NCBI GenBank assembly: GCA_964485935.1
Contig: CAZALG010000001.1
Span: forward strand, 1 to 52,428
DNA: 52,428 nucleotides
From: an uncultured bacterium
Lineage (GTDB): Bacteria > Hydrothermota > UBA3072
Reading direction: 5' to 3'
Positions 933-52,353 of the stretch are shown one piece after another. Position 1 is the first letter of the stretch. Every line of letters begins with the position of its first letter. The position numbers and the translations under genes are program-made. The notes below the pieces were generated by a model. The model was not told the DNA's origin. It saw only the letters and a program-made list of their open reading frames with translations, and did not search any database.

Positions 933-937
933 AAAAA

Positions 938-17954: not shown

Positions 17955-19961
17955 CTATTTAATTAAAGTCATTTTCTTTGTTTCAGCAAAACGATTACCA
18001 ACCTGTAATACATAGAAATAAATACCACTTGATAAGTTTTCTGCATTGAAATTAACAGTATATTCTCCGGCTTCCTGAAATTCGTTTACTAATGTTTGAA
18101 TTTCTTGACCAAGCATATTATAGATTTTTAAAGAAACAAAATCTGATTGCCGCGTTGAGTATTTAACTGTGGTCGATAGATTAAAAGGATTCGGATAATT
18201 CTGTAACAATACAAAATTATCAAAACCGGCTGAAACGCCTCCTGTTTGAACTTGTTTAAGAATCCAATTATCGGGGTCGAACTCAAGATTGCTTATAGGC
18301 TTTGTTAGGGAGAGGTCAAATGTTTGCGTTTCCTGATCGTTCCAGACAGTGATTAACGTATCCCCTTCTCCCTCAAAATTGAATTTAAGTTGAATCGGCA
18401 TCTCAAATACCTGTCGTCGTCCTAAACTTGATTGTGTTTGATTTATTTGAACACTTGTTTCGAATGTTGCAGGATTTTGATAATAACTATATTCATAAAT
18501 AGGAAAATATTCGTCATATAACCATTGATCAAAAAAGAAGGTAAGGTTCATACCACTTACACTTTCGCAAATCGCTTTAAAATCTTCGGTTGTTGCTTCA
18601 GCGTACATAAGATCAGGATGGTTTGCATACTGGTGTAGACATTCGAAAAACAGAGAGTCTCCTAATACTTCTCGAAGCATATGCAGTGTCCAGGCGCCTT
18701 TATAATATATGATAGTGATAAAAATATTAAAAGGATCAGAGATATCTTGCAGGTATAGAGTTCCGTCTCCAAAATATTCAAAGAAGTCCATTTTACTTTT
18801 ATATTCTTCAATCCCGTTCGTATGTTCTTGCCACAATGCTTCGCAATATGTGGCAAATCCTTCATTCAGCCATCCATGATGCCAATCTTTACACGTGACC
18901 ATACAACCAAACCATAAATGGGCGGTTTCATGTACAGCGGTACCGAACCAGTCTATGGATATATTATTCATAATAATATTGGTTTGGTTTTCAATTGCAG
19001 AGTAAATCGGCCCGATTTCGGTCATACCGTATTTTTCGTTTCTAAACGGATATGCGCCGAATTTGCTTGAGAAAAAATTCAACACATCAGGTATCAGTTT
19101 AATAGACCCTTGCTGGGCATCATAAAAAGTTTCTTGAAAGACCCAATAATTCAGCGGATAACTTTCCCCAAAATCTCCTTCGTAGATATTTTGTACTTCT
19201 ATATAATTTGAAATTGCAACCATAACATAATAGGGTGTTATCGGATATCGGTGTCTCCATCGGAATGTATTCTTACCTCTATAAGAGACAACATCTTGTA
19301 ACAGACCGTTGGATGTTGCTGTTAATGGAATACTGTTTATAGTTGTATCGGGAATGGTTATATCGATATACACGGAATCGGGTTTATCCCCCGGTCCGTC
19401 TTTACAAGGCCACCAATAATAAGCTAAATACGGTGTTGATAAGTTTGCAATAACCGGTTCATCATTTCCATGTTCTCCATAGATCAACCCTTTATTGTAA
19501 TATGGGCCTTCGGCAATGGGTGGAATTCCTCTATAAAATATTTTTATTTCGGCCGATTCATCTGCGTTATAGACTTTGTCCAGGGTAATATTAATGGAAT
19601 CATTAGAAAATGAGAAACCGGTAGAGTTTCCAATGATGCTGTCTATGGAGAAAGAATGATGTAAATTGAGGGTGATGGATTGAACACTGTCTTCTGTTAT
19701 TTCAAACCGGCATAATACACTTCCGCTTATATATGGTGAAGAAATATTGATTTCGACATCAAGATAATAAAAAAGAACATCAAAAAGGGAATCAATATTA
19801 AAAGATTCATAACGTTGAATATATTCTATCCAGTTTTGTTGTTCGATCTTATAATTATCCAATAAAATAGTAGAATTTTGAGCGGCGGATAGATTTATCC
19901 ATGAAGTGTTTGCAATAAAGAGAAGCACCACAAACAGATTGAATTTTTGTTTTTTAAACAT
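17955..19961 (-). CDS. M1-family zinc metallopeptidase (aminopeptidase N-like) with a T9SS C-terminal sorting domain
   Basis: HETAHLWFG-X18-WLNEGFATY (HEXXH-X18-E), with an upstream SAIEN (GAMEN-like) motif. C-terminal LLQNYPNPFNLSTTVKYS...LKIYNMLGQEI...SGIYFYVL. The ATG at 19961 gives a signal-like MFKKQKFNLFVVLLFIA, although the ORF extends to 20003. Confidence 0.75.
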   Translation of the reverse strand: MFKKQKFNLFVVLLFIANTSWINLSAAQNSTILLDNYKIEQQNWIEYIQRYESFNIDSLFDVLFYYLDVEINISSPYISGSVLCRFEITEDSVQSITLNLHHSFSIDSIIGNSTGFSFSNDSINITLDKVYNADESAEIKIFYRGIPPIAEGPYYNKGLIYGEHGNDEPVIANLSTPYLAYYWWPCKDGPGDKPDSVYIDITIPDTTINSIPLTATSNGLLQDVVSYRGKNTFRWRHRYPITPYYVMVAISNYIEVQNIYEGDFGESYPLNYWVFQETFYDAQQGSIKLIPDVLNFFSSKFGAYPFRNEKYGMTEIGPIYSAIENQTNIIMNNISIDWFGTAVHETAHLWFGCMVTCKDWHHGWLNEGFATYCEALWQEHTNGIEEYKSKMDFFEYFGDGTLYLQDISDPFNIFITIIYYKGAWTLHMLREVLGDSLFFECLHQYANHPDLMYAEATTEDFKAICESVSGMNLTFFFDQWLYDEYFPIYEYSYYQNPATFETSVQINQTQSSLGRRQVFEMPIQLKFNFEGEGDTLITVWNDQETQTFDLSLTKPISNLEFDPDNWILKQVQTGGVSAGFDNFVLLQNYPNPFNLSTTVKYSTRQSDFVSLKIYNMLGQEIQTLVNEFQEAGEYTVNFNAENLSSGIYFYVLQVGNRFAETKKMTLIK

Positions 19962-20026
19962 ATTTTTACTCTTTAAATATATAAATTTTTTTGAAGATAT
20001 CAAGATGAATTTGCCATCATTTGTCG

Positions 20027-23000
20027 CTATTTCACTAAAATCATTTTCTTTGTCTGGGAAAAATCATTTGCTTCGATTTTATAGAAATAAATCCCGCCCG
20101 CGAGACTCCCGGCATTAAAATCAACCGAATGATAGCCGGCTTCCTTCCTCTCATCTACAAGAACGACAACTTTTTGACCGGATATATTATACAGATTTAT
20201 ACGAACTTGAGCCGCCTTTTTTAATCCATACTGAATATGAGAAACCGCATTAAACGGATTAGGATAATTTTGACTGAGAAAATAATTTGAAGGAATGTCG
20301 CTGGGTTCTTCCACCCCTGTTATTGGTTCTCTAATTTCTAAAGCGCTTAATTTCGCGTTGTCGGTTACACTGATAAAATCGATATTCAATTCTCCGTTGG
20401 TTATACTTACAGGCATGACAACGTCGTACGCTGTGTTTTTATCGGTACGGAACAGGAGGTCTAAATCCTGGATAACCTGTTCTCCTTCCATCTCAACATC
20501 AAATATACGACTTCCCGGATTATCCTGATATATTTCGGCAAATTTGAATACCACATCATAGGAGCCGTTCGCAAGAGGAATCGCTTAGCTAAAATCACCA
20601 TAACGTTCACTCTGGTAAAGTGTATCATCTGCGGTACCGCCGATAGCAGTGGTTACAGAATAGGTAGAACCTCCGGAAAGCCATCCCGAAGATTCGTCAT
20701 TCATATACTCTATACCGCTTGTGGAAGATAAATAAGTGTCGCCTCCGGCATTTAAGGCGTGAATTACCTCTCCGTTTCCACCACCACCAGTAGTAACGAC
20801 TATTTCAGTGCCGGGGTCGGAAATATTTCCTGCGTTATATGAACGAACCCGGTAAGTGTAAGCTGTGGACTTTAATAGACCTGTTTCCAAATAAAATGTA
20901 TCGGTTGTAGCGCCGACTGTTCGGAAAACTCCGTCTATATCTACATCCACATAATACCCGAGTACATCCTCTTCTACAGCATTCCAGGATAGAAGGATTT
21001 GACTGGAATTTAAAGCATTGCCCTCTAAATTTTCGGGCGGATCGGGGACACTCAGACCCGGTTTAGGATCTCCTTCTATCCGGATAGTAATGCCTGCAGA
21101 AGGTATTGTCCCTGACCAATCTATTTTCAGCTGAGCAAGGTCTCCGCTTCCCGTGCGCAGGTAGTCAGTGCTAACTCCATTTACTCTTACAAAATCTATC
21201 GCATCCAGTGAATCACTGTATAAATCCCAAACATAAATAGCCGAAACATCCACTTCTTCATCCGGCGTGAAAACGATTTCTTGATTTTGGTAAGATTCAC
21301 CATAAGTGTTGTAACTCACAGTAGCGTAACCTCCAGGTGTAATTATAAGAGCATCCTGCAACTCGTGATTTAAAGAATCAAAGAGCATAGGTTCCAACCA
21401 TAGCTCACCCGAATATTCGTTGCGATGATATCCCGCAATATTGTAGTAATTGCGCCATAGAACAGGAATACTTATATATTGATAATATCCGCTCGCGCTT
21501 GTTGCAATCCACGTCGGAGAGGGAACCTCCGAAGGAATGCCAAGCTCCTGATCAAATACACGATTTCTATCGAGATAGTTACGCTCATACATATCTTTCT
21601 GCAGAGCCCACCACATACTAAACCTGCCTGCTTGCAGGGAATACCCTCCCAGGTGTCCGACAAGATACGGCTGCCACTCCGAATAGGAACCGCCGGGCAA
21701 TCCCATACCTCGATTCAAAGGGTCGTAATAATTGACGATTGTGTTATAAAGACCGTTTAATTTTTGTTTCTCCCAGAAGGGATCCATCTTTAGATAGTTA
21801 GCAATCCACGGACCACCGAGAACGCTTTCGCAGTAACTTCCCGTCGGATAGGTGTTATCCAGCCACCTGCTTTCAAAATTCATCGCAGCGGTATCTAAAG
21901 CAGCCTCGTAAAGACTATCTATATCTACTTCTCCCATAATTTCTGCTAAATAAGTCATAATTTGATATGCCACGACAGAAAGGCCCGTATTGTATGCCTG
22001 TGAGTTACCGCCCGCGTCATAGGTGCTCAGAGAATTTTCGAAAGTGTAGGGATAAGTAGAGCTGCCATACTCATTGACCTGGTCGAGAACGCGCTGTCCC
22101 GCGTTTTTTACATAATCCCAAAAATAGGAGAGTTTATCCTCATCGGCAGTGGCGATAAAGGCTTCATAAACGGAAATAATAAATCCGCAGTTCAAATCGA
22201 CCCACTCATATATTGGTCTGTAATCGGCATGTTCCGTATCGTCCCAATCCACATAATTGAAATTTGTTCCTAAATCGTGATGGATTTGACCGGTATAGTT
22301 ATCGACATGCTGAGTTCGAGCCCACCATTTCAACTCCTGCCAGGCGAGCTCCGGGTTAATCATCGTATAAATTTGCCTTGCATGCCACATCTGGTCCATG
22401 GTACCCTCCGGACTCCACATGCCTTCAGTGTGGCAGTAACGGCCGTCCTGAAAATATACACTGTTATTGACGAGATTTACCGTAGAGTTAAGAGTCTGAT
22501 CGACGAGCCACTCCGGAAGATTGGAACTCCGCATACGATTTACCAGTTCATCCGATTTATCTTGGAAAGCATCAAAATTACTGAGGGCTGAAACAGATAC
22601 CTCTTTAGCATTATTCCATATATTGGTATATTGATAATGGTCCAGTTCGTCCACTTGATACCATGACAAAACAAAACGCATTCTTCTTGTTTCACCTGAG
22701 GCTAAAGAAATTCTTAAAGCAAGGCGGTTTGTCGTACCGGAAAGACTATTGTCGCATAGCCCGTCGGTAAAAAAACCGCTGTCATTTCCATAGCTCAAAT
22801 CACCGGTGCCATCAGGAAAGTCACCGATAAGACAGAGTTCAAGAGAATCACCATTTGCTACAAATCCAGTATCCGTAATAGCTGTTGGTGTAACAGGTGT
22901 ACTAATTTGAAAAGCCAGAGCGCACTCGACCGCGCTGCTTTCTAAATTCTCAATCGTGAATTCAAACATCGCGCAGGGGTGACACATCATCGAAACGGAG

Positions 23001-23813: not shown

Positions 23814-24893
23814 TTATGAGTATTCTTTTTTTAGCATTAAGTATAGTCCTATCGTGAGAAAAAGTATATCCGGAATTAAAATCGAGAGTGAAGGCGGTAG
23901 ATTTCCCTTTATTCCGAGTTCTTTAAATAGTTGAATGATACCCCAGAAGGTAAACGCGGAAAGAGTGCCAAGTCCGAATCCGAAGAGTAGACCTCTTCTT
24001 TTGACTTCAAGGGCAAGAGGACAACCAAAAAGAAGAATGATGGCACTTACAAAAGGATATGAAATTCTCTCGAGTAATTCGATCTTTTCAGAGTTGGACT
24101 TCTGTCCGCTTCTGTCCAGTTTCTTAATATAACGTAAAAGCTCCGAAAAAGGAAGATTTATAGGGTTGTATTTGCTCCTAACTAATTCACCGGGAGACGT
24201 TTTGAAATCCTCGATTATTTTTTCACTTTTGGATTCCAGCAATACAAGATCATCGACGAAATTTCTAATATAGACTTTAGAAAAAACCCAGCTTGAATCT
24301 TTCCACTCGCCTTTCTCCGCATCAACTCTGGAGACCAATTTTCCGTCTCTGTATTCCAAAATATATACTTCGTGAATTGTATTGTCGTTGAGCCTATTTA
24401 TGCCTACAATTTTCCCTTCATCTGTTATGTAGTTTATATTTCTGGCGTAGCTTCTTGTAAAATCTTCCATTTTATCTATCTCTTTTCTTTTGAACTCGGT
24501 AAGTAGTTCTTTTGACCTTGGAATTAAAGAAAGATTAAAGGCTAAAACAACCAGTGAAACCAGAAAACCATAGAGAAAAATCGGTTTGTATATTCTAAGA
24601 GGCGGCACACCGAGCCCTCTGAGAGCCAATACTTCATTGTGTTTCGTTATTAATCCGAGAGAAAAATAAAGTCCCATTAAAGTGGCAAGAGGCATTAAAA
24701 GAACAACGATTTTGGGCGAAAACAGGAGATAATATTTTAAAATAGTAAAAAATGATGCTTTTCTGTCCACGAAGTATCCGATATTTTCGAATAAATTTGT
24801 GATTATATAAATAAAAAGAAAGCCTACTAACGAAAGGGCTAAAGCTAAAATAAACTTTTTAATTATATAATTATCTAAGGTTCTATTTTTCAT
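23814..24893 (-). CDS. lptG: LPS export ABC permease, LptG (YjgP/YjgQ family)
   Basis: 359 aa with the family architecture of 3 TM, a periplasmic beta-jellyroll region, then 3 TM. It follows the paralogous permease with an 11-nt overlap. Confidence 0.65.
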
Positions 24894-26025
24894 AGACTAT
24901 TTTATAAAAAAGATATATGCCTGCAATTCCTATAACAATATTTGGAAGCCACATCGCAAGAGAAGGATAAAGAGAACCTCTTTCACATAATTCTTCTCCT
25001 CCGACCAACAATATATAGTAAAGAATAAACATGAAGAAACTCAAAGTTATCCCATTCCCAAGCCCACCCTTTTTCGTTTGTATTCCGAGAGGAGCACCTA
25101 TAAGGACAAAAACCAAACAAGCAAAAGGTATGGAGAATTTTTTCTGTGCTTCCAGAAGATAACGCCATTTTCTTCTTTTCACATTCGCTCTTCTGGCATT
25201 TTCCAAAAGTTGTTTTAAATTCATTTCCCTGTAACTTCTAGTGACCGTCCTTGCCTTTTTCTCTCCCAGGGGTACGGAAATTATATAATTATTAAAATTC
25301 ATTATTCTGTATTCCTCAGGATTTCTCTGGTCGAAAATATGGGTTTCCCCATTGTAGAGTGAAAAAGTTAGGCTGTCGCCTAAAACTTCCATCTTTCCCT
25401 CGTCGGCATATATTATTCTTGTGGATTCTCCGGGTAAATCTTCCTTTAGCATAACCTTTGTTAGTTTTGACTTTGAATGGTCTATATTTTTTATCCATAG
25501 GGTATAACCGTTACTGATTTCATTAAACTTTTCAGGAAGTAGGTGCAGGGTAGGTCTTGCTCTCGAGATTTCCAGGTAGAGTTTTTTTAGTTTGAAGTTA
25601 GCTTCGGGTAACAAGTAAATGTTAAAAAATATCATTCCGATTGTCACTCCAGAAGCCGCCAGAAAAAATCCTTTGGTTAAACCCAAAGGGTTGATTCCGA
25701 GAGAGCGTATTGCGAGAATTTCAAAATCCCCACTCATTCTCCCATAAGTGGCAATAGTGGAAACCAGTACTCCCATAGGCACAGTTAGAGCTATTATAAA
25801 AGGTAAACTATATACAAAAACCGCGATGACAGATATTGGCGGTACATTTTTACCTATAAGAAAATCGAACAACTGGAAAGCTCTGTCCATTAGGAGAATA
25901 AAACTAAAAAGTGAAAATCCCGCGAGAAATGGGATAGCCGCCTGCTTCAATAAATACTTGCTCAGGAGAGAAATTTTACATCTTCTTGAAGGGGAAGAAA
26001 AGTCTTTCATATTCATTTTGCGCAA
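24883..26025 (-). CDS. lptF: LPS export ABC permease, LptF (YjgP/YjgQ family)
   Basis: SLLSKYLLKQAAIPFLAGFSLF is a typical N-terminus for the family. The start is uncertain: TTG 26025 and ATG 26016 or 26010 all overlap the dgt 3' end, while the conserved part begins only at about 25974. Confidence 0.65.
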   Translation of the reverse strand: MRKMNMKDFSSPSRRCKISLLSKYLLKQAAIPFLAGFSLFSFILLMDRAFQLFDFLIGKNVPPISVIAVFVYSLPFIIALTVPMGVLVSTIATYGRMSGDFEILAIRSLGINPLGLTKGFFLAASGVTIGMIFFNIYLLPEANFKLKKLYLEISRARPTLHLLPEKFNEISNGYTLWIKNIDHSKSKLTKVMLKEDLPGESTRIIYADEGKMEVLGDSLTFSLYNGETHIFDQRNPEEYRIMNFNNYIISVPLGEKKARTVTRSYREMNLKQLLENARRANVKRRKWRYLLEAQKKFSIPFACLVFVLIGAPLGIQTKKGGLGNGITLSFFMFILYYILLVGGEELCERGSLYPSLAMWLPNIVIGIAGIYLFYKIVYEK

Positions 26026-32711: not shown

Positions 32712-34232
32712 ATGTTTAAATTTTACGACCGGTTTAAGAAAATCCCTGGTATTTATGCACTGCCTATCTTGGGCGGATTCTGTTTGACTCTTTCGTTTGC
32801 TCCTTTTAATCTTTCTATTCTTGCCTGGTTTGCTTTTATTCCTCTATTTTATTCTCTCCGAGACGGAAAATATCCTTTCCTGAAGGGTTTTATTATGGGG
32901 CTTGCTTTTTTCTCTACGCTTCTTTACTGGGTTGCCTTCTCGGATGTGGTAGAGGGCACAATTGTTCCGCTTGTAGTGTTCGGGTCTTTTCTTTTAGTGG
33001 TATATCTTTCTTTATTCTTCGGTTTCTCGGGTATTTTATATGATAAATTAAATAAAAAGGGACATGTCTATTTTTTCCCGATTGTTTTTGCAGGGCTCGA
33101 ATTCTTGCGAAGCCTTTCTTCTGTTTGGGGCTTTACCTGGGGTTCAATTGGATTTTCTCAGAGCAATTTACTTCATTTGGTTCAGTTTGCCTCTATCGGC
33201 GGCGTGCCTCTTGTCTCGCTGTGGGTCCTTTCTTTAAACATCGTCATATATTTATTTTTTAAAAATTTAGATGCGGAAATAAAAAAGAAAATGATTTACT
33301 TTTTTTCTTTTCTTTTTTTACTGGTCATCCCTTTTATATATTCAGAAATTATACTTCATAGAGAAATTTCACCAATTGAACACAAAACCGTAGGAGTGGT
33401 ACAACCAAATATTTCACCGTCAGATAAAAGAAAGAATGATTTTGAGCGACTGCTCAGTATAAAAAGAACTATTGAAGAAAGCCCGGGTGCCGATTTATAT
33501 GTGTTACCGGAAACAGCATCACCTTTTTCGCTTACCCACAATAACGGGGTAAGGCTTTTTTTCGTGAACCTTGCGAAAGAAATGAACGCACCTATTATTA
33601 CTGGCATGGTTGATTATGAAAGAGAAAAAGAAGAAATTGCATATTATAATTCGTCAGCCGTAGTCGATTCATCCGGCATCAAGGGTACTTATAGAAAAAT
33701 TTTTCTCCTCCCTTTTGTGGAGAGACTCCCTTTCGATGACGTTATCCCTAAACTAAAAGAGGTAGATTTGGGCCAGGGGCAATTTACTCCGGGGGCTAAC
33801 TTTACTGTTTTTGAGATTGATAGTTTCAATTTTTCTGTTTATATTTGCTACGAAGCAATTTTCCCTCAGCTTCTAAGAAAGTTTGTAAATAGTGGGGCTG
33901 AAATTCTTGTGAATATAACAGAGGATGGTTGGTTCGGCAGAACTAACGGACCTTACCAGCATGCCCAAATGGCTGCTTTCCAATCGATAATCTTCAGGAG
34001 GGCTATTGTAAGATCGGCGAATACTGGTGTTTCATTCGTCAGCGATCCCTATGGTAGGATTATAAAGAAAACTCAGATTTTCGAGGAAGATTGTATTACT
34101 TGTAAAGTTCCTCTCTTGGAATGTAAAACTATTTATGCGAGAATAGGTAATACTTTTGGATGGACTTTTTTGTTGTTTATTTTACTGCTTATTATATCGG
34201 AACCGGTAATAAGGAAAAATAAGGGAAGATGA
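32712..34232 (+). CDS. lnt: Apolipoprotein N-acyltransferase
   Basis: Multi-TM N-terminal half followed by a CN-hydrolase domain with LPETA (Glu), YRKIFLLPFVE (Lys) and VYICYEAIFP (Cys). Confidence 0.8.
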   Translation: MFKFYDRFKKIPGIYALPILGGFCLTLSFAPFNLSILAWFAFIPLFYSLRDGKYPFLKGFIMGLAFFSTLLYWVAFSDVVEGTIVPLVVFGSFLLVVYLSLFFGFSGILYDKLNKKGHVYFFPIVFAGLEFLRSLSSVWGFTWGSIGFSQSNLLHLVQFASIGGVPLVSLWVLSLNIVIYLFFKNLDAEIKKKMIYFFSFLFLLVIPFIYSEIILHREISPIEHKTVGVVQPNISPSDKRKNDFERLLSIKRTIEESPGADLYVLPETASPFSLTHNNGVRLFFVNLAKEMNAPIITGMVDYEREKEEIAYYNSSAVVDSSGIKGTYRKIFLLPFVERLPFDDVIPKLKEVDLGQGQFTPGANFTVFEIDSFNFSVYICYEAIFPQLLRKFVNSGAEILVNITEDGWFGRTNGPYQHAQMAAFQSIIFRRAIVRSANTGVSFVSDPYGRIIKKTQIFEEDCITCKVPLLECKTIYARIGNTFGWTFLLFILLLIISEPVIRKNKGR

Positions 34233-43861: not shown

Positions 43862-45427
43862 TTATTTTGCCTTTATAACTGTTATATTCTTGGATGTCCA
43901 GGCTACAATTTCTCTTCCTTTATGTAAAATTGCAAATATTTTTACATTTATCTGATCTACTCCTTCAGGAAGTCTATTTGCCTGAAATTCACGATTTAGA
44001 ATAATTTTGCCGGCGGCAGGTGGAACAACTTTCCATGTTACCCTGTAGTCGTCAGGTTCCTTATTTAATATTAAAGGTATTTTAAAACCCTCTATTACTT
44101 GTTGCGCTGGAAAAGCTAAGTCGATATATCCCGGAGTTAATGCACTCCCTGAGTCTCCTGCATGTTGAATATTATCCTCTGAAAAACGGTCTTCACCTAT
44201 AATGATAAATGCTCTTGCCGGTTTAACATTTATATCTACGCCTGGCTCAGCTATCAAAACTCCTGCCCCGAGTCTTCTGGGTATAAAAATCCCTTTATTA
44301 TCAATAGTGCCGATATCCTCCGGGATCACCCTCCATCTTAAAGCTATTTTCTGTTCGCCCATTACCCTAAATTGAAATTCCTTATTGAGATCTAAGGTGA
44401 TAAAGTGTTTGAAAGAAGGCGTTATTTCTAAAGGTTGTATTTTTTCTGAAGTTATGTAAACGTCTGCGGAAACAACTCCTTTCCCAAATCTTTGCGGTAA
44501 AATAGCAATTACCCTTCCTTTCGATGGAATCTCTCCGGCGATAAAAGTTCCGTCATTTCTGACTCGTCCACACCTCTCAGGTATAACTTTCCAGCTAACG
44601 GGAATATTTACGTTGCCGAAACCTTCTGCATTTACTTTAAAATGTACTCTTTCGCCCGTTTTAAGAGTTACGGACTCCGGAATTATGCGCAAACCCACTT
44701 CTCCGCTTACCACCACAATAGCGCGTCCTTCACTTCCGTTTTTCTCGGCTACAATAACTGCTTTACCCGGAATTTTGGCTGTAAATAAGCCGTTTAAGTT
44801 TATCTCTCCTATATTTTCTCCCTCAACTCTCCAGTTGACTTTTTCGTCTCCTTTTACCTGGAATTGTACTTTATCTCCCGTTTTAACTCTTTTGAACCGA
44901 GGAGTAATTTGAATATCACTTATAACACCGCTTACTCTGACAAACGCTGTTTTTATTTCCCCGTTTGCAAGTACGGCAATCACCCTTCCTCTACCGCTAT
45001 TCAGAGCTGTAAAAATACCATTTCGGATACTTCCAATCCCTGCAGGTATACATTTCCATTCTTTAGTTATTCCTCCGGCAATTGTAAATTTAACTTGTTC
45101 TCCTGTTTTAAGAATTGCAACCGGAGGAAGTATTTTCGCACTTTCACTGCTGCCTATCTTAATATATGCAAAACCAGTTGCATGTTTACCGTCCCTCATA
45201 ATTCTGCATCTAAGAACACCCTTCCCCTCTTTACTCGGTATAAAAAAGTTCCCTTGAATGTGCCCAAGAGAATTAGGAACAACGCTAAATGACAAATCCC
45301 CTTCGAGCATTCTACCCTCTCTATCTAATACCCTTACGACAAAGGGAATTTTTTCTCCTACTTTACCCTCAATAGGATTTGGAGATATATGTAGCTCTAA
45401 AGATAATAACAAAAAAACTAACATCAT
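43862..45427 (-). CDS. Secreted protein with about 5-6 bacterial Ig-like (Big_2-type) repeats
   Basis: Repeated ~80-aa modules, for example TGDKVQFQVKGDEKVNWRVEGENIGEINLNGLFTAKIPGKAVIVAE. N-terminal signal. The start overlaps the anti-sigma stop (ATGA). Confidence 0.6.
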   Translation of the reverse strand: MMLVFLLLSLELHISPNPIEGKVGEKIPFVVRVLDREGRMLEGDLSFSVVPNSLGHIQGNFFIPSKEGKGVLRCRIMRDGKHATGFAYIKIGSSESAKILPPVAILKTGEQVKFTIAGGITKEWKCIPAGIGSIRNGIFTALNSGRGRVIAVLANGEIKTAFVRVSGVISDIQITPRFKRVKTGDKVQFQVKGDEKVNWRVEGENIGEINLNGLFTAKIPGKAVIVAEKNGSEGRAIVVVSGEVGLRIIPESVTLKTGERVHFKVNAEGFGNVNIPVSWKVIPERCGRVRNDGTFIAGEIPSKGRVIAILPQRFGKGVVSADVYITSEKIQPLEITPSFKHFITLDLNKEFQFRVMGEQKIALRWRVIPEDIGTIDNKGIFIPRRLGAGVLIAEPGVDINVKPARAFIIIGEDRFSEDNIQHAGDSGSALTPGYIDLAFPAQQVIEGFKIPLILNKEPDDYRVTWKVVPPAAGKIILNREFQANRLPEGVDQINVKIFAILHKGREIVAWTSKNITVIKAK

Positions 45428-46404
45428 CCCTCCTTATAGAAAGTGATATTTTTTTCTCCTTTAGTTGAAAGAGAAAGGTAATGCAACCCTTCTTCCAATG
45501 GAGGAATGGAATCACTTCCTATAAATATAACATTAGAGTCTTCATCTTTTGTATAATTTGTTATTTTTTCACCGTCAAGGCTTATTTCAACCGCTTCATC
45601 AGGGTCTTCTAATATAAAAACAATTTCAAAATCTTTCCCCACAACTGACCCTTCTTCTGGGAATACAAAACGTGTTTCTTTAAAATCTTCTTCGGAGATA
45701 ATTCCACCAGCTAAAGCACTTTCGGAAATTTTGGAGGATAGCCTTTCTATTTTGAAATTAGGAGGTTCTAAAGAATAAGTTTCTTCGCTTTGACTGAAAT
45801 CCATTGTTGTTTTACCCTTTGGTGCAGCTAATTCCTTAGAAAATTTCTGAATTTTTTCTCCTTCAACAAAATCTTTTTTTGCTACTGGCAATGAAGTTCT
45901 CGGAACTTTGGCCTCTTTCAATCTGGATTCCACAACTGGTCTTGCATCGCCAACTTCTTCTACTTTCTCTTTGTCCAAAGACTTTTCTGCACTTTTTAAA
46001 ACTTCTATTTCATCCAAAGTTTCCGTCTTCTGTATTTCCTGAGGTTTTTTTGTTGTTAACGTTAGATTATCATTATCTATGTTAAGTAAAACCGTAGAAA
46101 CAATTATTAAAACAGCCGCAGCGCTCACTGCTAAATATCTCCATCTGATCTTTGCCGAACTTATTATTACCGGAACTTCCTCTTGAGTGGTGTTTTTCAA
46201 TATATTGTCTATTAAATAGTCAGGGCACTGGATTTCCTCCTTTGTCAAACGCAGTTTTTGCAAAAGTGTTTCTTTACGCTTAAGTTCTTCTTTGCATTTC
46301 TCGCAGGATTTTAGATGTTTTTCTAAATCCCGGCGTTCTTTATTGTCTAAAGCATTATCCAAATAACCCTGTATTAATTCTTCAAATCTTTTATGATTTT
46401 TCAT
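45424..46404 (-). CDS. Anti-sigma factor (zf-HC2), single TM, with an extracytoplasmic Ig-like C-terminal domain
   Basis: HLKSCEKCKEEL (H-x3-C-x2-C) and TM segment YLAVSAAAVLIIVSTVLL. The start overlaps the sigma gene stop by 4 nt. Confidence 0.7.
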   Translation of the reverse strand: MKNHKRFEELIQGYLDNALDNKERRDLEKHLKSCEKCKEELKRKETLLQKLRLTKEEIQCPDYLIDNILKNTTQEEVPVIISSAKIRWRYLAVSAAAVLIIVSTVLLNIDNDNLTLTTKKPQEIQKTETLDEIEVLKSAEKSLDKEKVEEVGDARPVVESRLKEAKVPRTSLPVAKKDFVEGEKIQKFSKELAAPKGKTTMDFSQSEETYSLEPPNFKIERLSSKISESALAGGIISEEDFKETRFVFPEEGSVVGKDFEIVFILEDPDEAVEISLDGEKITNYTKDEDSNVIFIGSDSIPPLEEGLHYLSLSTKGEKNITFYKEG

Positions 46405-46931
46405 ATTTTTTCCTTTACCATTTCTCCAAGTTTTATAAGGGTTCTATGTAACCTGGATCTTACTGTCCCAATAGGTATTCCCAATATTTGCGCTATGGCA
46501 GAATAGTCACAGTCCTCGTAATATCTGAGCACTAAAATTTCCTGGTATTTCTTTGGTAGTAAGTATATCATGTTCTTGATGAGTTGCCGTTCGGATTTCA
46601 TAAGAGCAAACTTCTCTGGATTACCTTCTGTAGCGGGATCGGCAATATCATCGATAGAAACCTTATCTCTCTTGCGAGCTTGTTCTCTTCGGTATTTAAA
46701 AACAGTATTAAGAGCTATCCTGTAAAGCCATGTATAAACGGCCGAATCTCCTCTAAATGACTTAAATCCCCTCCAGGCATTCATGAAAACATCCTGGGTT
46801 AATTCATTTGTTATTTCGTAATTATTTGTCATGTTATAAATCATTTTAAAAATCCTCTGAGTGTGAGTTTTAACAATCTTCTCAAATCTTTCTTTCCTCT
46901 GTTCATCATTTTTACTCCCCCGTCTCTTCAT
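46401..46931 (-). CDS. ECF-type RNA polymerase sigma factor (sigma-70 family, regions 2 and 4)
   Basis: DVFMNAWRGFKSFRGDSAVYTWLYRIALNT (region 2) and YQEILVLRYYEDCDYSAIAQILGIPIGTVRSRLHR (region 4). The ATG at 46931 is preferred over TTG 46949, because the ECF-type promoter at 46940..46967 occupies the TTG. Confidence 0.8.
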   Translation of the reverse strand: MKRRGSKNDEQRKERFEKIVKTHTQRIFKMIYNMTNNYEITNELTQDVFMNAWRGFKSFRGDSAVYTWLYRIALNTVFKYRREQARKRDKVSIDDIADPATEGNPEKFALMKSERQLIKNMIYLLPKKYQEILVLRYYEDCDYSAIAQILGIPIGTVRSRLHRTLIKLGEMVKEKI

Positions 46932-46939
46932 TTTTCTAT

Positions 46940-46967
46940 TTAGATACAAAATCCGGAAGTTAGTTCC
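46940..46967 (-). promoter_or_regulatory. ECF-type promoter GGAACTA-N16-TCTAA directly upstream of the ECF sigma gene (putative autoregulation)
   Basis: The minus strand reads TAG GGAACTA acttccggattttgta TCTAA atagaaaa ATG. The motif is identical to those at 48782..48809 and 51368..51395. Confidence 0.6.
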
Positions 46968-48470
46968 CTAAAAATCATACTCATATATAATTCTAAGCAG
47001 GTGTTCATCATATCCGTTTTCCAAATATGGATAGTAGTTTATGTTTATATTCCCGAAGCTACCCAAACCCAACGTAGCGTCTACATTAAAATCAAAACTT
47101 GTACTTGAATCGTCCACGCAAGAATAAATACCAAAGGATAGTATATGGTCTCCATGATACCAGGAAATATTAGATAAAATCCTGTAAGCTCTTGTCTCTT
47201 CTATATAGACCGTTTTTTCGACCCCTATTGTATTTTCCATTTGCAGAGAACCCGAGACAGATTCAAAACCCAGTCCGATATAAGTGTATTGCTCATCATA
47301 ATATTCGGGATATTTAGCCCACTGATACTCAAGAACCGGCGAGAAACAATCGAATAGGTTCCATTTGAACGATTGATTCAAGGATACACCAGAGGTTTCA
47401 TTATCTTCGTAGGCAAGGTAATCGAAGTAAGTATAAAAGGGCCCCTTTTCATATATTCCGTTGACAAAACCGGAGGTCCTCCCGTTGTAAATATAAGAAT
47501 TCCCTGGTGTGAGATACCCATCACTCACCGTTCTTATCCCTATTTCTATATCATTCAAATTTGATTCATATACTAATTTGCCTTCAAAAGCGCTTCCTTT
47601 CATGATAGAATCTGCATAAAGATTGTCATTACCGCTTGAAAAAGCCCCTTTTATTTTTAAGGATATTACCTTATTAATATCCAATTCTGTTTCTAATGAC
47701 AGAACACCTGCTTCCTCCGGATCCTCGAATGTAAACTCCATTACATTCGAAGTATCGTCCCTTCCGTAAAAAGCTGTTAGCCCCATAGATAATGGGCCTT
47801 TTTTGAAGATTGTTTTACCACCAAGGAGCCATCTGGGATATTCTGCAAATAAAGAATCATAATCATCTGAGTATAAGATAACAGGAATTATGGAAAAATT
47901 CCCTGCACCTATTTCACCGCTTATTCCAAAACCTCCTGGAGAGCAGATTGTCAACTCATGTAGATATGGCGAAATATAACCCGCTTCCAGATAGTATTTA
48001 CCTTTTAAATAGCTTAAGTATGGGTACCAGTCTATCTCGTATTGCGGGTCATGATAAAGTGAGACCCTTAAGTAATTTTCACTCTTATAAACAGAAAAGT
48101 CTAAACCTAAAAGAGCTTCGTTTTCTCCTGTATAGAAGGTATCCGCAAAATAGGAATTATAATTTCCTATTGAAAGACTCCCCGAAAAAACAAATGGGAT
48201 TTCCTCTTTTTTTTCGGTTACAAAGAAATCCCATTCTTCTGCTTCGTTTTCGGTTTTCACTTTTAATTTGTGCTTCCCTCCGGATAGATTATTCGCTTCC
48301 GCAAAGAAATATCCTGATTTTATTTCACCGGGGAATCGCACTCCATCTAAATAAACGTTAATCAATCTTTCTTCTACCGGCGGATCGAACAGGATAGTAA
48401 TATCAAAAGGTCTGGAAACCGAATCATTAGGAGAAATTAGAAATATGGTTGAAATAATTATTTCTATCAT
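46968..48470 (-). CDS. Hypothetical outer-membrane beta-barrel-like protein with an N-terminal Ig-like module
   Basis: 500 aa, rich in alternating aromatic/polar beta-strand patterns, with a C-terminal ...LLRIIYEYDF (terminal Phe). The N-terminal segment resembles the anti-sigma C-terminal domain. Confidence 0.45.
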   Translation of the reverse strand: MIEIIISTIFLISPNDSVSRPFDITILFDPPVEERLINVYLDGVRFPGEIKSGYFFAEANNLSGGKHKLKVKTENEAEEWDFFVTEKKEEIPFVFSGSLSIGNYNSYFADTFYTGENEALLGLDFSVYKSENYLRVSLYHDPQYEIDWYPYLSYLKGKYYLEAGYISPYLHELTICSPGGFGISGEIGAGNFSIIPVILYSDDYDSLFAEYPRWLLGGKTIFKKGPLSMGLTAFYGRDDTSNVMEFTFEDPEEAGVLSLETELDINKVISLKIKGAFSSGNDNLYADSIMKGSAFEGKLVYESNLNDIEIGIRTVSDGYLTPGNSYIYNGRTSGFVNGIYEKGPFYTYFDYLAYEDNETSGVSLNQSFKWNLFDCFSPVLEYQWAKYPEYYDEQYTYIGLGFESVSGSLQMENTIGVEKTVYIEETRAYRILSNISWYHGDHILSFGIYSCVDDSSTSFDFNVDATLGLGSFGNININYYPYLENGYDEHLLRIIYEYDF

Positions 48471-48480
48471 AATTTAGGTT

Positions 48481-48509
48481 ATTTTATTGTTTTCTACACA
48501 ATTGGTCAA
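48481..48509 (-). promoter_or_regulatory. Sigma70-like promoter (CCC)TTGACC-17-TAAAAT, 10 nt before ATG 48470
   Basis: Complement of 48504..48509 is TTGACC. Complement of 48481..48486 is TAAAAT. No SD. Confidence 0.45.
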
Positions 48510-48781
48510 GGGTTTTTTGCCTTTTCTGTAAAAAGATTGAACCACAAAGTACGCAAAGAGCACAAAGATTTTGTTTTGTTAACTATATATTTCACAGGGT
48601 ATCAATTTCTTTTGCAAAGCTGAAGCTTTACTCTACATTTAAAAGATAGAGGTAGGGAAGAGTTCAAAAACAGAATAATTAGTTGGGCATGGGGTGGCTT
48701 TGTGTTCTTCGTGGTCTCTGTGGTTAAAACTATGTGTTAGCGGTTTTGCCGAGACGAACTCTTTTAAGTAAAAGTTTTTTT

Positions 48782-48809
48782 GGAACTAAATAATAATTTT
48801 TTTATCTAA
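48782..48809 (+). promoter_or_regulatory. ECF-type promoter GGAACTA-N16-TCTAA upstream of serpin 1
   Basis: GGAACTA at 48782..48788, a 16-nt spacer, then TCTAA at 48805..48809. A 20-nt leader containing GGAGG precedes ATG 48830. Confidence 0.6.
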
Positions 48810-48829
48810 TATAAAAACAGGAGGAAAAT

Positions 48830-50071
48830 ATGAAAAGTGAAAAAGCGCCTTTTTTGTTTATCGTAATTTTACTTTTAATTTTTAGTTGTGACCTCACCGG
48901 ACCCAGCGAACCGATTCGAGAATTAAGTTCTTCCGAGACGGAACTCATAGAAGCGGACAACTCTTTCGGTCTTAAACTCTTTAAAGAAATCAATGCAGAA
49001 GAAACTGAATCAAATGTTTTTATCTCTCCTCTATCTATTTCGATGGCGCTCGGTATGACTTATAACGGAGCCGCCGGGAGTACCGAGGAAGCGATGAGGA
49101 CTACACTTGAATTTGGTAATTTATCGAGGGGTGAAATAAACGAATCTTATAAAAGCCTGATTGAATTGTTAGGAAGTATTGATTCAGATGTTGAGTTTAA
49201 TATCGCGAATTCTATATGGTATAGAGACGATTTTACTTTCGAACAGGATTTTTTCGGAAGATGCAGAGACTATTTTGACGCGAGAGTAAGCCCACTTGAT
49301 TTCAGCCAAAGTGTCGCGGCAAAGGACACTATGAACAACTGGGTGAACGAAAATACAAATGGCAAAATAAAACAGATAGTCGATAATGTGGACCCATTAG
49401 CCGATGTTATGTTTCTAATAAATGCAATGTATTTTAACGGTACCTGGACTTATCAGTTTAACGAGGAGGACACAAAAGAAGATACTTTCTATCTTTCCGG
49501 AGGAGAAACCAAGATATGCAAAATGATGGAGGTAAGAAGTTATTTTAAATATTTTGAGGATTCGCTCTTACAGGCAATCGATATTCCTTACGGTAATGGC
49601 AATTATTCTATGACTGTTATACTGCCGCAGGAAGACCAAGATATTGATTTAATGATTGCGGGATTAACAAATAGCCAGTGGGATGAGTGGATGGATAGTT
49701 TCACTGAAGATTCGGTGAATTTGTTTCTACCAAAACTTAAACTTGAATATAAAATAAAAGATTTACTGAAGGACGCTCTAACAAATTTGGGAATGGGAAT
49801 TGCATTCGATGACGGGGAAGCGGATTTCACCGGAATGTATGAACCGGGAGGTATTTTTATCGACAGGATAATACATAAAACTTTCCTCGAAGTAGATGAG
49901 GAGGGGACTGAGGCTGCGGCGGCTACGGTTGTAGCGATGGCCTTAACAAGTATTGAAGGTGAAACTTACCCGGTTATTAGAGTAGATAGACCTTTCCTCT
50001 TCGCAATAAGGGAAAATCATTCCGGCACCATACTTTTTATCGGGAAGATTGTCGATCCTGTATGGGATTGA
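48830..50071 (+). CDS. Serpin-family protease inhibitor, lipoprotein (paralog 1)
   Basis: Signal plus lipobox LLLIFSC. Inhibitory-type hinge EEGTEAAAATVV followed by the reactive-centre loop AMALTSIEGETYP and the serpin signature VDRPFLFAIRE. NWV.E.TNGKI and FNG.W motifs are also present. Confidence 0.85.
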   Translation: MKSEKAPFLFIVILLLIFSCDLTGPSEPIRELSSSETELIEADNSFGLKLFKEINAEETESNVFISPLSISMALGMTYNGAAGSTEEAMRTTLEFGNLSRGEINESYKSLIELLGSIDSDVEFNIANSIWYRDDFTFEQDFFGRCRDYFDARVSPLDFSQSVAAKDTMNNWVNENTNGKIKQIVDNVDPLADVMFLINAMYFNGTWTYQFNEEDTKEDTFYLSGGETKICKMMEVRSYFKYFEDSLLQAIDIPYGNGNYSMTVILPQEDQDIDLMIAGLTNSQWDEWMDSFTEDSVNLFLPKLKLEYKIKDLLKDALTNLGMGIAFDDGEADFTGMYEPGGIFIDRIIHKTFLEVDEEGTEAAAATVVAMALTSIEGETYPVIRVDRPFLFAIRENHSGTILFIGKIVDPVWD

Positions 50072-50121
50072 AAGCGTGGAATTAAATAAAATTTTTTTAA
50101 AGGAAATAGCAGGAGGAAAAT

Positions 50122-51360
50122 ATGAAAGGTAAATTGATGTTTCTTTTGTTTGTTATGATCTTACTTTTAGTTTCTGGTTGTGATGTTACGGAGCCCACCG
50201 GACCGCTGCGAGAATTAAGTTCTGCCGAGACGGAACTCATAGAAGCGGACAACTCTTTTGGTCTTAAACTCTTTAAAGAAATCAACACAGAAACTCCAGA
50301 TTCAAATGTTTTTATCTCTCCTCTTTCTATTTCAATGGCGCTTGGCATGACTTATAACGGAGCAGCCGGGAGTACCGAAGAGGCTATGAGAACCACACTT
50401 GAATTCGGTAATCTATCTAGAGGTGAAATAAATGAGTCCTATAAAAGCCTGATAGAATTATTAGAAGAAATAGATTCTGATGTGAAATTCAATATCGCTA
50501 ATTCTATCTGGTATAAATATGATAGGCCTTTTAAACAGGATTTTTTCGAAAGATGTAGAGATTATTTCGATGCGAGAGTAAGCCCACTTGATTTCAATCA
50601 AACTGAAGCAGTGAAGGATACGATTAATAACTGGGTGGAGGAAAACACAAACGGCAGGATAAAGGATATTTTAGATTATGTACACCCACTTGCTGTTATG
50701 TATCTTGTAAATGCGATATATTTTAACGGTAATTGGACATACCAGTTTAACGAGGAGGACACAAAAGACGAGCCGTTCCATCTCCCCGGAGGAGGAACAA
50801 AAGATTGTAAAATGATGGAGGTAAAAAGCCGTTTTAAATATTTTGAGGATTCAGCTATGCAGGCAATCGATATTCCTTACGGTAATGGAAATTATTCGAT
50901 GACTGTTATACTTCCACAGTATGGTGAAGACATAGAGGAGTTTATCGCAGGATTGACGAAAGGCCAGTGGGATGAATGGATGAATAATTTTACTGAAGAT
51001 TCGGTGAATTTGTTTTTACCCAAGCTTAAATTAGAATATAAAACGGACAGCATTCTAAAAGAGGTTCTAAAAGATATGGGAATGGAAATTGCTTTTGATC
51101 AATTCAGAGCAAATTTTACCGGTATGGCTGACCCCTCAAATATCTGGATCGGCAGAGTCATTCATAAGGCCTTTCTGGAGATCGATGAAGAAGGAACAGA
51201 GGCTGCAGCAGCTACTGTTGTTGAAATGTTGGAAAGTGCAGTACCAGTACCCGGCCACCCTACTATATTTGTTAATAGACCTTATATCTTTGCAATCAGG
51301 GAAAATCATTCCGGTACAATACTTTTCATCGGGAAGATTATTGAACCTTTCTGGGAATGA
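50122..51360 (+). CDS. Serpin-family protease inhibitor, lipoprotein (paralog 2)
   Basis: Signal plus lipobox LLLVSGC. Same scaffold as paralog 1, with long identical stretches. The hinge EEGTEAAAATVV is followed by a different loop, EMLESAVPVPGHP, then VNRPYIFAIRE. Confidence 0.85.
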   Translation: MKGKLMFLLFVMILLLVSGCDVTEPTGPLRELSSAETELIEADNSFGLKLFKEINTETPDSNVFISPLSISMALGMTYNGAAGSTEEAMRTTLEFGNLSRGEINESYKSLIELLEEIDSDVKFNIANSIWYKYDRPFKQDFFERCRDYFDARVSPLDFNQTEAVKDTINNWVEENTNGRIKDILDYVHPLAVMYLVNAIYFNGNWTYQFNEEDTKDEPFHLPGGGTKDCKMMEVKSRFKYFEDSAMQAIDIPYGNGNYSMTVILPQYGEDIEEFIAGLTKGQWDEWMNNFTEDSVNLFLPKLKLEYKTDSILKEVLKDMGMEIAFDQFRANFTGMADPSNIWIGRVIHKAFLEIDEEGTEAAAATVVEMLESAVPVPGHPTIFVNRPYIFAIRENHSGTILFIGKIIEPFWE

Positions 51361-51367
51361 AAAATTT

Positions 51368-51395
51368 GGAACTAAAGGAGGTTATTTCAATCTAA
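51368..51395 (+). promoter_or_regulatory. ECF-type promoter GGAACTA-N16-TCTAA upstream of the lipoprotein gene 51417..52289
   Basis: GGAACTA at 51368..51374, a 16-nt spacer, then TCTAA at 51391..51395. A 21-nt leader containing AAGGAGG precedes ATG 51417. Confidence 0.6.
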
Positions 51396-51416
51396 AGAAA
51401 TATAAAGGAGGCTGAG

Positions 51417-52289
51417 ATGAGGAATAGAAGATTGTTAAGTTTGTTAGTTGTTTTTGTTTTAATACTTGTTATTGAGTGTGAAAACAACCCAACCGGCAAC
51501 GATATCTCTATGGATGAAGAAGCAATTGAGGATTATATATTAAACGATCTTGATTTTGCGGGATATTTTTCGTTTGAAGAATATTACGGAGAAGAAGATA
51601 CTGTGACTCGACTCAGGACCATTACAGGTCCGAGTATATGGTATAGAGAACCGCAGAATATAAACAGAGATATGTCGATCAATATAGTCAATGACTCAGC
51701 CTTTGTTAGCTTTTGGGGTAGCGTTGGTGGCGTATTTCATATACTGGAAAGAGATATATCAGCTTCTCCGGATACCGTAATCGACCATCAAAAGAATCTT
51801 GATGATAATTCTTCTAACTATGCAATATTTAAACGTGCCTTAGGAGCGACTGCTTACCGGGGATGGGTTCTTGAAAGCCTAACCGGGGTAAATGTAAATG
51901 GATTAGATCGCCAGAAGGGTGATTGCGTAGTTGTTTGGATTGATTCCCTCAGAATTAATTGTGAATCCTACGAGGACACGTTATTTACTACTCCCTTCGT
52001 ATTTTTCGAGAGAGGAGAGCTTCTTACTTTTGGGGGTCAGGAAGCAGTCACTCTCACCCTTTATTCAGGATATGATATATATTCCTATCTGCATGCCAAT
52101 ACTCTGGGAGACTGGAGAAGATGGGCATTTGAAGAAATTGAGCCAGGAGTATGGCAAGGTGATTGGGTAACTCCGCCTATTCCCGGGATTAGGGCTGTCG
52201 CGTTCGATATTCTGATGAAGGAAGCTATCGACGAAGAATATGGCGCATATCTGTCCAGAATCTGGTTGTTCCCTTACAGGGTAGAGTAA
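51417..52289 (+). CDS. Hypothetical lipoprotein downstream of the serpin pair
   Basis: SD AAGGAGG and signal plus lipobox-like LILVIEC. No recognisable domain. Confidence 0.55.
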   Translation: MRNRRLLSLLVVFVLILVIECENNPTGNDISMDEEAIEDYILNDLDFAGYFSFEEYYGEEDTVTRLRTITGPSIWYREPQNINRDMSINIVNDSAFVSFWGSVGGVFHILERDISASPDTVIDHQKNLDDNSSNYAIFKRALGATAYRGWVLESLTGVNVNGLDRQKGDCVVVWIDSLRINCESYEDTLFTTPFVFFERGELLTFGGQEAVTLTLYSGYDIYSYLHANTLGDWRRWAFEEIEPGVWQGDWVTPPIPGIRAVAFDILMKEAIDEEYGAYLSRIWLFPYRVE

Positions 52290-52312
52290 TTTCCGACCTT
52301 TTTCCGTTTCTT

Positions 52313-52353
52313 CAACAAAGGGGCAGTTTAAACTGCTCCTTTGTTGTTTTTTT
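52313..52353 (+). terminator. Rho-independent terminator
   Basis: Stem CAACAAAGGGGCAG (52313..52326) / CTGCTCCTTTGTTG (52333..52346) with one G-U pair, loop TTTAAA, then TTTTTTT (52347..52353), 24 nt after the stop codon. Confidence 0.8.

Follow-up and report, generated by a model that had tools for sequence, protein, structure and literature searches.

Putative ECF-type promoters shared by a sigma-factor operon, serpin genes and a lineage-specific lipoprotein gene in an uncultured WOR-3 bacterium

Are three exact copies of a two-box motif, GGAACTA-N16-TCTAA, promoters, and which sigma factor is expected to read them? The motif is found on contig CAZALG010000001.1 of an uncultured bacterium (GTDB lineage Hydrothermota; UBA3072), in a window of 52,428 bases, i.e., the whole stretch of DNA that was analyzed. 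The first copy (46967..46940, minus strand; -35 box GGAACTA 46967-46961, -10 box TCTAA 46944-46940) precedes an operon that starts with a gene for a sigma factor of the extracytoplasmic function (ECF) type. The second copy (48782..48809, plus strand) is the putative promoter of serpin-1, the first of two serpin genes, and the third copy (51368..51395, plus strand), which begins 8 nucleotides (nt) past the stop codon of serpin-2, is the putative promoter of a lipoprotein gene that we call lipo290. We consider it likely, judging from sequence comparison, that all three are promoters read by the adjacent ECF sigma factor (46401-46931). The homologues of this sigma factor that have a named source belong to candidate division WOR-3, for which we know of no cultured representative.

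The three copies, with identical boxes and an identical 16-nt spacing, had been listed in an earlier reading of the same DNA (the initial annotation). A pattern search returned the same sites, and no match was found in 100 dinucleotide-preserving shuffles. The distances between motif and gene that had been reported are also correct. Copy 1 is located within the 36-nt gap between the sigma gene and a gene of 500 codons for a predicted outer-membrane beta-barrel protein (hereafter, the barrel gene); it abuts the TAG stop codon of the latter (46970-46968) and ends 8 nt before the ATG of the sigma gene at 46931. Copy 2 ends 20 nt before the ATG at 48830, and copy 3 ends 21 nt before the ATG at 51417. 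No relationship was seen among the three copies in their spacers and flanks. Widening of the spacer to N17-20 after GGAAC yielded no further site in the window, and when one or two mismatches were allowed, the 11 extra matches, compared to 7.35 expected, were at the background level. The sequence that the copies have in common exceeds the motif noted first: it is GGAACTAA-N14-ATCTAA, with a T-run 5' of the -35 box and a T-rich part of the spacer, and across the comparative data described below its full form is TTT-GGAAC[T/C]AA-N14-ATCTAA.

We compared the window to 13 GTDB orthologous loci, metagenome loci gathered by an unbiased, strict-pattern scan, and the more distant loci L120-L124 (locus numbers are ours), and approximately 507 kb of WOR-3 DNA were assembled for counts of the motif. 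In all 13 GTDB loci, with sigma identity of 67-92%, the sigma gene is preceded by tagGGAACTAA-N14-ATCTAA-ata[ga]a[ac]aaATG, in which the boxes are identical and the spacers are divergent; the motif upstream of the sigma operon is also kept in the more distant orthologues, with sigma identity of 53-63%. Invariant boxes with diverging spacers are likewise seen before the sigma operon in several metagenome loci and in three more distant orthologues. The form GGAACTAA-N14-ATCTAA is invariant before the sigma operon in all orthologous loci examined, which amounts to 16 distinct sequence contexts and, in addition, FecR-led variants. The variants are found in L122-L124, where the barrel and sigma genes are separated by an inserted FecR-domain gene (L122 5471-6652; L123 8806-9987; L124 8818-9996); in these loci, it is the FecR gene that follows the motif, with a normal Shine-Dalgarno (SD) sequence in between, as expected if transcription starts just past the motif.

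The slightly relaxed pattern GGAACNA-N16-TCTAA occurs 72 times in the 507 kb of WOR-3 DNA, in 53 distinct contexts, compared to approximately 0.4 occurrences predicted from base composition. Sixteen of the contexts are located before the sigma gene, 31 before a gene led by an SD sequence, and 5 before a non-coding 3' element that is described below; one is truncated at a contig end and 0 are located elsewhere. Frequent occurrence at random genomic positions had been named in the initial annotation as an observation that would speak against a promoter; within the 507 kb, none of the 72 occurrences lies outside sites proximal to a gene or to the element. Across dozens of loci, the boxes are conserved and the spacers diverge.

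The sigma factor itself (46401..46931, minus strand, 176 amino acids (aa)) is a sigma-E-like member of the ECF (group IV) sigma factors, with the Pfam domains Sigma70_r2 and Sigma70_r4_2 and no other domains. It passes the cutoff of the family-level model TIGR02937 (103 bits, cutoff 42.9) and reaches the cutoff of no NCBIfam equivalog model (99 bits versus a cutoff of 236 for TIGR02939, RpoE); therefore, it is placed at the level of the ECF superfamily, with no named ECF group. Among solved structures, E. coli sigma-E (1or7/6jbq, E 5e-22) is the nearest relative. Their recognition helices compare as PIGTVRSRLHRT versus PVGTVRSRIFRA, and in the alignment to 1or7 as GTVRSRLHR versus GTVRSRIFR. 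Base-specific contacts of sigma-E with the -35 element are made by R176, S172, R171 and F175, and histidine has been treated as equivalent to phenylalanine at the last of these positions (PMC1540707). The sigma factor in the window keeps R171, S172 and R176, and has histidine in place of F175. Promoters of E. coli sigma-E have the form GGAACTT-N16-TCAAA, with a start site 5/6 nt past the -10 box (PMC1312014).

Three features of the ECF family were found: the r2 and r4 domains only, an anti-sigma gene directly downstream, and an AAC-containing -35 box before the operon. An ECF motif fixed directly before its own sigma operon is the usual signature of autoregulation. As to sigma-E membership, the -35 recognition residues and the GGAAC box are present, whereas the equivalog score and the partners RseA/RseB/RseC are lacking; the system is sigma-E-like at the promoter level, yet it is not the RpoE-RseA system. 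Invariant boxes with variable spacers, the match to the boxes and spacing of sigma-E, and the conserved -35 contact residues support the ECF-type promoter that the initial annotation had proposed. It should be noted that the motif, its conservation, its placement with respect to genes, the domain content and the synteny were observed, and that the adjacent sigma factor as the reader of the motif, the positions of transcription starts, and a signal from the envelope are what we infer from these comparisons.

The explanation that competes best is that the motif is an ECF-type promoter read by another ECF sigma paralogue, whose gene would lie in a different part of the genome, with the adjacent sigma gene as only one of its targets. 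The visible part of this genome is 52 kb, and the same boxes are used by another ECF lineage. In the metagenome loci L047 and L083, the gene 49 nt downstream of the same motif encodes an ECF sigma factor that is unrelated to the one in the window (30% identity, helix GAVKSRLHRAR; L047 2342-3033; L083 898-1559; also in L102), on higher-GC contigs with the upstream sequence TTTGGAACTAAA-N13-CATCTAA, so that the box pair is common to both lineages. At the same time, this is an independent instance of the box pair in front of an ECF gene and, as such, also speaks for an ECF-type promoter. However, the motif is fixed directly before the operon of the sigma factor studied here over the range of 53-92% sigma identity, the residues of its recognition helix suit a GGAAC -35 box, and no second sigma gene was found in the 52-kb window. 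A paralogue as the reader is, on this evidence, quite improbable.

Another explanation, which we hold to be very improbable, is that the motif is the site of a conventional transcription factor, a repressor or an activator, and not a promoter. An operator could, in principle, look like this, with two conserved blocks near start codons. Conversely, the motif is non-palindromic and its orientation in every case follows that of the gene downstream, its distance to the SD sequence and start codon is fixed at 20-22 nt, and both its box sequences and its 16-nt spacing match those of sigma-E. Furthermore, no other promoter-like element is present between the motif and the genes: sigma-70-like sites in the region number 21 versus a mean of 26.9 in shuffled sequence, i.e., fewer than expected by chance. 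A negligible probability remains for the view that the copies are regulation-free, having arisen by chance or as pieces of a duplicated segment or intergenic repeat: AT-rich intergenic repeats are present in the region (including a 34-nt inverted repeat, 48534-48567 / 48698-48731) and serpin-1 and serpin-2 are tandem duplicates, but the shuffles, the unrelated spacers and flanks of the three copies, the boxes kept with diverging spacers in dozens of loci, and the decay of the duplicated copy before serpin-2, as expected if selection keeps one promoter, all speak against this. A generic repeat was rejected because scans of the window and the 13 loci, with relaxed patterns and with a position weight matrix, gave gene-proximal sites only.

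If the adjacent sigma factor reads the motif, then the genes behind copies 2 and 3 are its putative output. Serpin-1 (48830..50071, plus strand; Pfam Serpin, 6e-117) is a lipoprotein with an LLIFSC lipobox; its transcript is predicted to start at approximately 48815/48816, and an SD sequence, AGGAGG, is found at 48820-48825. Serpin-2 (50122..51360, plus strand; Pfam Serpin, 1e-117) is a lipoprotein with an LLVSGC lipobox. The serpins are full-length (the Pfam model is covered at 370/370 positions), and the hinge EEGTEAAAATVV is present in both paralogues, while their reactive-centre loops differ. The hinge of inhibitory serpins follows a rule of glutamate at P17, glycine at P15, threonine at P14 and an alanine-rich stretch at P12-P9. 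By fold and hinge, both proteins are predicted to be serpins of the inhibitory type; the solved structure nearest to serpin-1 is that of miropin (5ncs, 1.5e-81). Before serpin-2, there is a degenerate copy of the promoter (GGAATTAA ... AAGGAA; 50078..50105, plus strand) for which the position weight matrix gave no above-threshold match and which is probably non-functional. This decayed copy suggests that the promoter was part of the tandem serpin duplication and that one copy was lost later. No terminator-like site was found between serpin-1 and serpin-2; since the motif of serpin-2 has decayed and no terminator is located upstream, serpin-2 is probably co-transcribed with serpin-1.

The third output gene, lipo290 (51417..52289, plus strand), encodes a lineage-specific lipoprotein of 290 aa with no Pfam family. 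None of the 41 homologues found has a Pfam family either, and those with a named source all belong to candidate division WOR-3. No match to PDB sequences was obtained; an AlphaFold2 (AF2) model, with a predicted local distance difference test score (pLDDT) of 82, has an N-terminal helical region and two beta-sandwich domains, for which Foldseek found generic Ig-like matches only (template modeling score, TM, 0.2-0.3). It should be noted that the window also encodes LptF/LptG (23814-26025) and the apolipoprotein N-acyltransferase Lnt (32712-34232), which indicates a diderm cell with lipopolysaccharide and lipoprotein maturation.

The initial annotation had suggested examining whether serpin synteny is conserved in relatives. 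Wherever a serpin is visible, the motif precedes the first serpin gene (L001, L003, L004, L007, L008 and L010, together with 18 metagenome loci); the barrel and serpin genes of L004 have two unrelated genes between them. The motif precedes lipo290 genes in the window, L001, L010, L105 and L108, and a variant with one mismatch, GGTAC, does so in L003; in L001, it also precedes a gene for a 222-aa lipoprotein. Two loci, L065 and L093, contain a motif-led serpin gene with no sigma gene within 9-12 kb upstream. L125, which lies on the same contig as L012, has three tandem lipo290 paralogues, each led by the motif 20-22 nt before the ATG, and no serpin; these paralogues lie beyond a pst/pho operon, at a distance of 9.4 kb from the sigma promoter. 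Retention of the motif far from the sigma gene in L125, L065 and L093 shows that the association between motif and output genes does not depend on adjacency, and it speaks for action in trans. The serpins and the lipoprotein as putative outputs thus gain support from the motif before both families in relatives. In contrast, the name of a protease-inhibitor regulon, given in the initial annotation, is too narrow, because L125 combines three lipoproteins with the lack of a serpin; the regulon is better called a surface/periplasmic lipoprotein set, with serpins in most members.

The sigma operon continues with two genes whose starts each overlap the stop codon of the preceding one. The first encodes an anti-sigma factor (45424..46404, minus strand, 326 aa, single-pass) of the zf-HC2 (HxxxCxxC) type; the Pfam domain covers residues 6-37, the motif is H30-x3-C34-x2-C37, and a hydrophobic segment is predicted from the sequence at approximately residues 89-109. 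Matches to NCBIfam anti-sigma models were below the cutoff only. An anti-sigma gene is located downstream of the sigma gene in every locus. The final gene of the operon (43862..45427, minus strand) encodes an exported Big_2/Ig-repeat protein of 521 aa (Pfam Big_2) and is syntenic in all loci. These three genes had been proposed to form the sensing operon, which agrees with the Pfam domains and the conserved synteny, but the upstream barrel gene has to be counted in the conserved module as well. The barrel gene (46968..48470, minus strand) directly adjoins the sigma promoter on its upstream side; its synteny holds across all loci, with 46-94% identity, and the order barrel / sigma / anti-sigma / Big_2 / era is shared by all 13 GTDB loci. 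Being co-linear with the sigma gene in all loci, the barrel gene is probably part of the module.

The barrel protein, with the C-terminal sequence ...YEYDF, matched no Pfam family and no PDB sequence. Its AF2 model (pLDDT 70) has a small N-terminal beta domain followed by approximately 22 long antiparallel strands, and the Foldseek matches in PDB are outer-membrane barrels only (probability 1.0, TM ~0.3). A likeness of the form 'LDG ... L..G.H.L' was noticed between the N-terminal domain of the barrel protein (approximately residues 20-90) and the C-terminal domain of the anti-sigma factor (approximately 240-326); we do not claim homology, as the BLASTP E-value of 0.026 is too weak. The two may be related, interacting periplasmic domains.

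The sequence before the sigma ATG contains no SD sequence, although other genes here carry strong AGGAGG sites. With the 5/6-nt discriminator borrowed from E. coli sigma-E, the sigma transcript is predicted to start 2-3 nt before the AUG, at approximately 46934/46933. Given the distance of 8 nt between the end of the -10 box and the ATG, and the lack of an SD sequence, we infer that the messenger RNA (mRNA) of the sigma / anti-sigma / Big_2 operon is essentially leaderless. Within the sigma gene, codons 4-9 (46915-46904, minus strand) include an SD-like GGGGGAG with one or more out-of-frame ATG codons 7-10 nt later, and the overlapping frame ends after 11 codons. The loci have this feature in common: the amino acid at codon 8 varies, but the codon is NAT in every case. 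The barrel ATG (48470) also has no SD sequence, and a sigma-70-like TTGACC-17-TAAAAT (48509-48481, minus strand) ends 11 nt before it; the barrel mRNA may also be leaderless, although the region shows no enrichment of promoter-like sites compared to shuffled sequence.

In the proposed mechanism, copy 1 would provide positive autoregulation of the sigma / zf-HC2 anti-sigma / Big_2 operon. The membrane-spanning anti-sigma factor would presumably keep the sigma factor inactive until an envelope signal inactivates the anti-sigma factor, and the barrel and Big_2 proteins could possibly be involved in this inactivation. The loop suggested in the initial annotation, in which proteolytic damage frees the sigma factor, is plausible as a speculation.

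Several observations weigh against the adjacent sigma factor as the reader of the motif before serpin and lipoprotein genes. No output gene was found within 8 kb of the sigma gene in L011 (neither a serpin, nor lipo290, nor the 3' element) or in the L012 stretch. Similarly, no serpin, lipo290 or 3' element is present within 10 kb in the distant loci L120-L124; given L120-L124 and L011, the serpin link is not extended to deeper relatives. The ATG located 8 nt past the -10 box requires leaderless translation, which, to our knowledge, is undocumented for this phylum. The TCTAA -10 box is without the G of the 'GTC' that has been emphasized for the -10 element of sigma-E (PMC6648896). Finally, the regulon may be larger than what was seen, as the pattern used for the metagenome scan is strict.

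Directly after the stop codon of lipo290, we found a conserved 3' RNA element (52290..52353, plus strand) that was missed in the initial annotation. It consists of an invariant UUCCGUUUCUUC stretch and a terminator; the invariant TTCCGTTTCTTC (52302-52313) is unpaired and is followed by a terminator hairpin of 15 bp (52313-52346) and then a T-run. The element is present in a single copy in the window; nearly all relatives likewise carry one copy per locus, in which it closes the serpin/lipoprotein cluster on the 3' side; a covariance model yielded one match of 65-90 bits per locus and one weaker extra copy in L125. The 12-nt tail is invariant, three of the 11 predicted stem pairs have compensatory changes, and the fold z-scores range from -3.4 to -6. 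No Rfam family reached its gathering score for the element in the window. A generic terminator or repeat family was considered and rejected, given the one exact copy in the window and the one strong covariance-model match per locus.

The element occurs in three configurations. In the first, as in the window, it forms the 3' untranslated region (3'UTR) of lipo290. In the second, it forms the 3'UTR of a serpin gene, and loci of the L004 type keep the last lipo290 codons as a relic (…FPYGV) between the serpin stop codon and the element (L004 3335-3400, minus strand; also L016 and L057), which indicates that the lipoprotein gene was lost and the RNA element was kept. In the third (L017, L029, L078, L048, L093 and L104), the element has its own intact GGAAC[T/C]AA-N14-ATCTAA approximately 30 nt upstream and no open reading frame. 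Retention of the boxes with a diverged spacer after gene loss argues for selection on the transcription of the element itself. The element is, from these patterns, a candidate ECF-dependent small RNA or 3'UTR-derived RNA. Accordingly worded, the proposed output would be as follows: copies 2 and 3 would drive the serpins (serpin-2 probably by read-through), lipo290 and, through the shared terminator, the 3' RNA element. An identity of the L104 unit (828-934, minus strand) as an L20_leader was rejected, as the score of 31 bits, compared to the gathering score of 58.7, most likely reflects chance.

The tail of the 3' element is complementary to the first sigma codons, UGAAGAGACGGGGGAG (46915..46930, minus strand), a hypothetical pairing site. 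There are 16 contiguous pairs, 5 of which are G-U, with a duplex energy of -20.6 kcal/mol, and among 43 start regions in the window, that of sigma ranks first by duplex energy, followed by that of the anti-sigma gene. The pairing is kept in 13/13 loci, which are not independent, and a shuffled seed attains it in 0-2.2% of trials; in 10 of 11 loci, the sigma start ranks first among local start regions. A scan of all positions in the window weighs against the pairing: many coding stretches rich in purines pair with the U/C-rich tail, so that the sigma start is not conspicuous among them. No strictly compensatory change in the pairing was seen across the loci. The signal is confined to start-region scans, and the pairing is therefore kept as a hypothesis; direct RNA feedback on sigma is a tentative idea that we find rather doubtful. 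Under such feedback, CCGUUUCUUC of the 3' element would pair with GAAGAAACGG of the sigma mRNA; in some genomes this RNA would be a stand-alone gene with an ECF promoter, in others the 3'UTR that ends the last gene of the regulon. The most complete version is that the ECF sigma factor drives the lipoprotein serpins as well as an RNA of approximately 60 nt whose CCGUUUCUUC tail pairs with the leaderless sigma mRNA at its first codons, which would result in negative feedback, and that the barrel / anti-sigma / Big_2 module senses across the envelope, possibly external proteolysis. This combination is similarly doubtful; if true, an uncultured phylum would have an anti-protease stress response that limits itself.

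Comparison to known systems helps to delimit what is familiar here. The E. coli sigma-E system resembles the one in the window in its nearly identical promoters (GGAACTT-N16-TCAAA versus GGAACTA-N16-TCTAA) and conserved -35 contact residues, in an autoregulated sigma operon that includes a membrane anti-sigma factor, and in envelope-protein outputs. In contrast to E. coli, the anti-sigma factor in the window is of the zf-HC2 type, there is no RseA/RseB/RseC, the next gene is Big_2, the sigma/anti-sigma pair is flanked by the barrel and Big_2 genes, and the sigma mRNA is predicted to be leaderless. Moreover, the outputs of sigma-E are chaperones, proteases and Bam/Lpt factors, whereas the putative ones in the window are serpins and lineage-specific lipoproteins. 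Sigma-E also controls the small RNAs MicA, RybB and MicL (PMC6648896), and the lineage of the window may be similar in concept, with a short RNA made from the same type of promoter.

In a Gram-positive serpin system, a bacterial serpin is likewise under dedicated, adjacently encoded signal transduction, and protection from environmental proteases has been proposed; however, a histidine kinase and a response regulator are used there, compared to an ECF sigma/anti-sigma pair in a diderm here, and protease induction is demonstrated there, whereas for the system in the window it is a speculation. Miropin of Tannerella forsythia (PDB 5ncs) is, like serpin-1, a bacterial serpin with a lipoprotein signal peptide, but the reactive-centre loops differ. 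It is a surface-located, broad-range inhibitor; we found no ECF control of miropin in the literature. The FecA-FecR-FecI system shares with the window an outer-membrane barrel, extended by an N-terminal domain, whose gene adjoins the ECF sigma/anti-sigma genes; a FecR-domain gene is present only in the distant loci L122-L124. Unlike in the Fec system, the barrel protein in the window has no detectable TonB-dependent receptor/Plug domain, and the anti-sigma factor has no FecR domain by Pfam.

An ECF sigma factor with its anti-sigma factor and an autoregulated promoter is a well-known mechanism; what is new is the set of genes in the regulon, the phylum, the leaderless form predicted for the sigma mRNA, and the 3' RNA element. 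Bacterial serpins are widespread, and their regulation is known in very few cases. Full-text literature searches found no ECF-serpin circuit and no report of a WOR-3 serpin, only incidental co-mentions, in agreement with the initial annotation, whose author was aware of no such circuit. The system offers a handle on when an environmental diderm deploys protease inhibitors, and on regulatory logic in candidate division WOR-3. The compact combination of a sigma factor, an anti-sigma factor and a highly specific promoter set is the type of orthogonal part used in synthetic biology, and the 3' element adds a candidate ECF-dependent small RNA outside Proteobacteria.

Some minor observations were made along the way. 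In nine loci (L018, L022, L034, L054, L061, L074, L075, L098 and L107), an identical TTTGGAACTAAAAAGATTTGGACTAATCTAA is located 23-24 nt before genes for various small exported proteins with the signal peptide MKKVLF...; these genes may represent another ECF-type regulon, in unrelated bacteria. The 34-nt inverted repeat mentioned above, in the divergent barrel/serpin intergenic region, is imperfect (76% complementary), with arms 130 nt apart, and rich in CACAAAG; similar CACAAAG-rich stretches are found 3' of terminators in L029, L048 and L125, and the repeat may be a small mobile or structured element. Elsewhere in the window, on the minus strand, C-terminal sorting domains of type IX secretion are found in a GH39-like protein (5751-7937), an M1 peptidase (17955-20003) and a malectin-domain protein (20027-20554).

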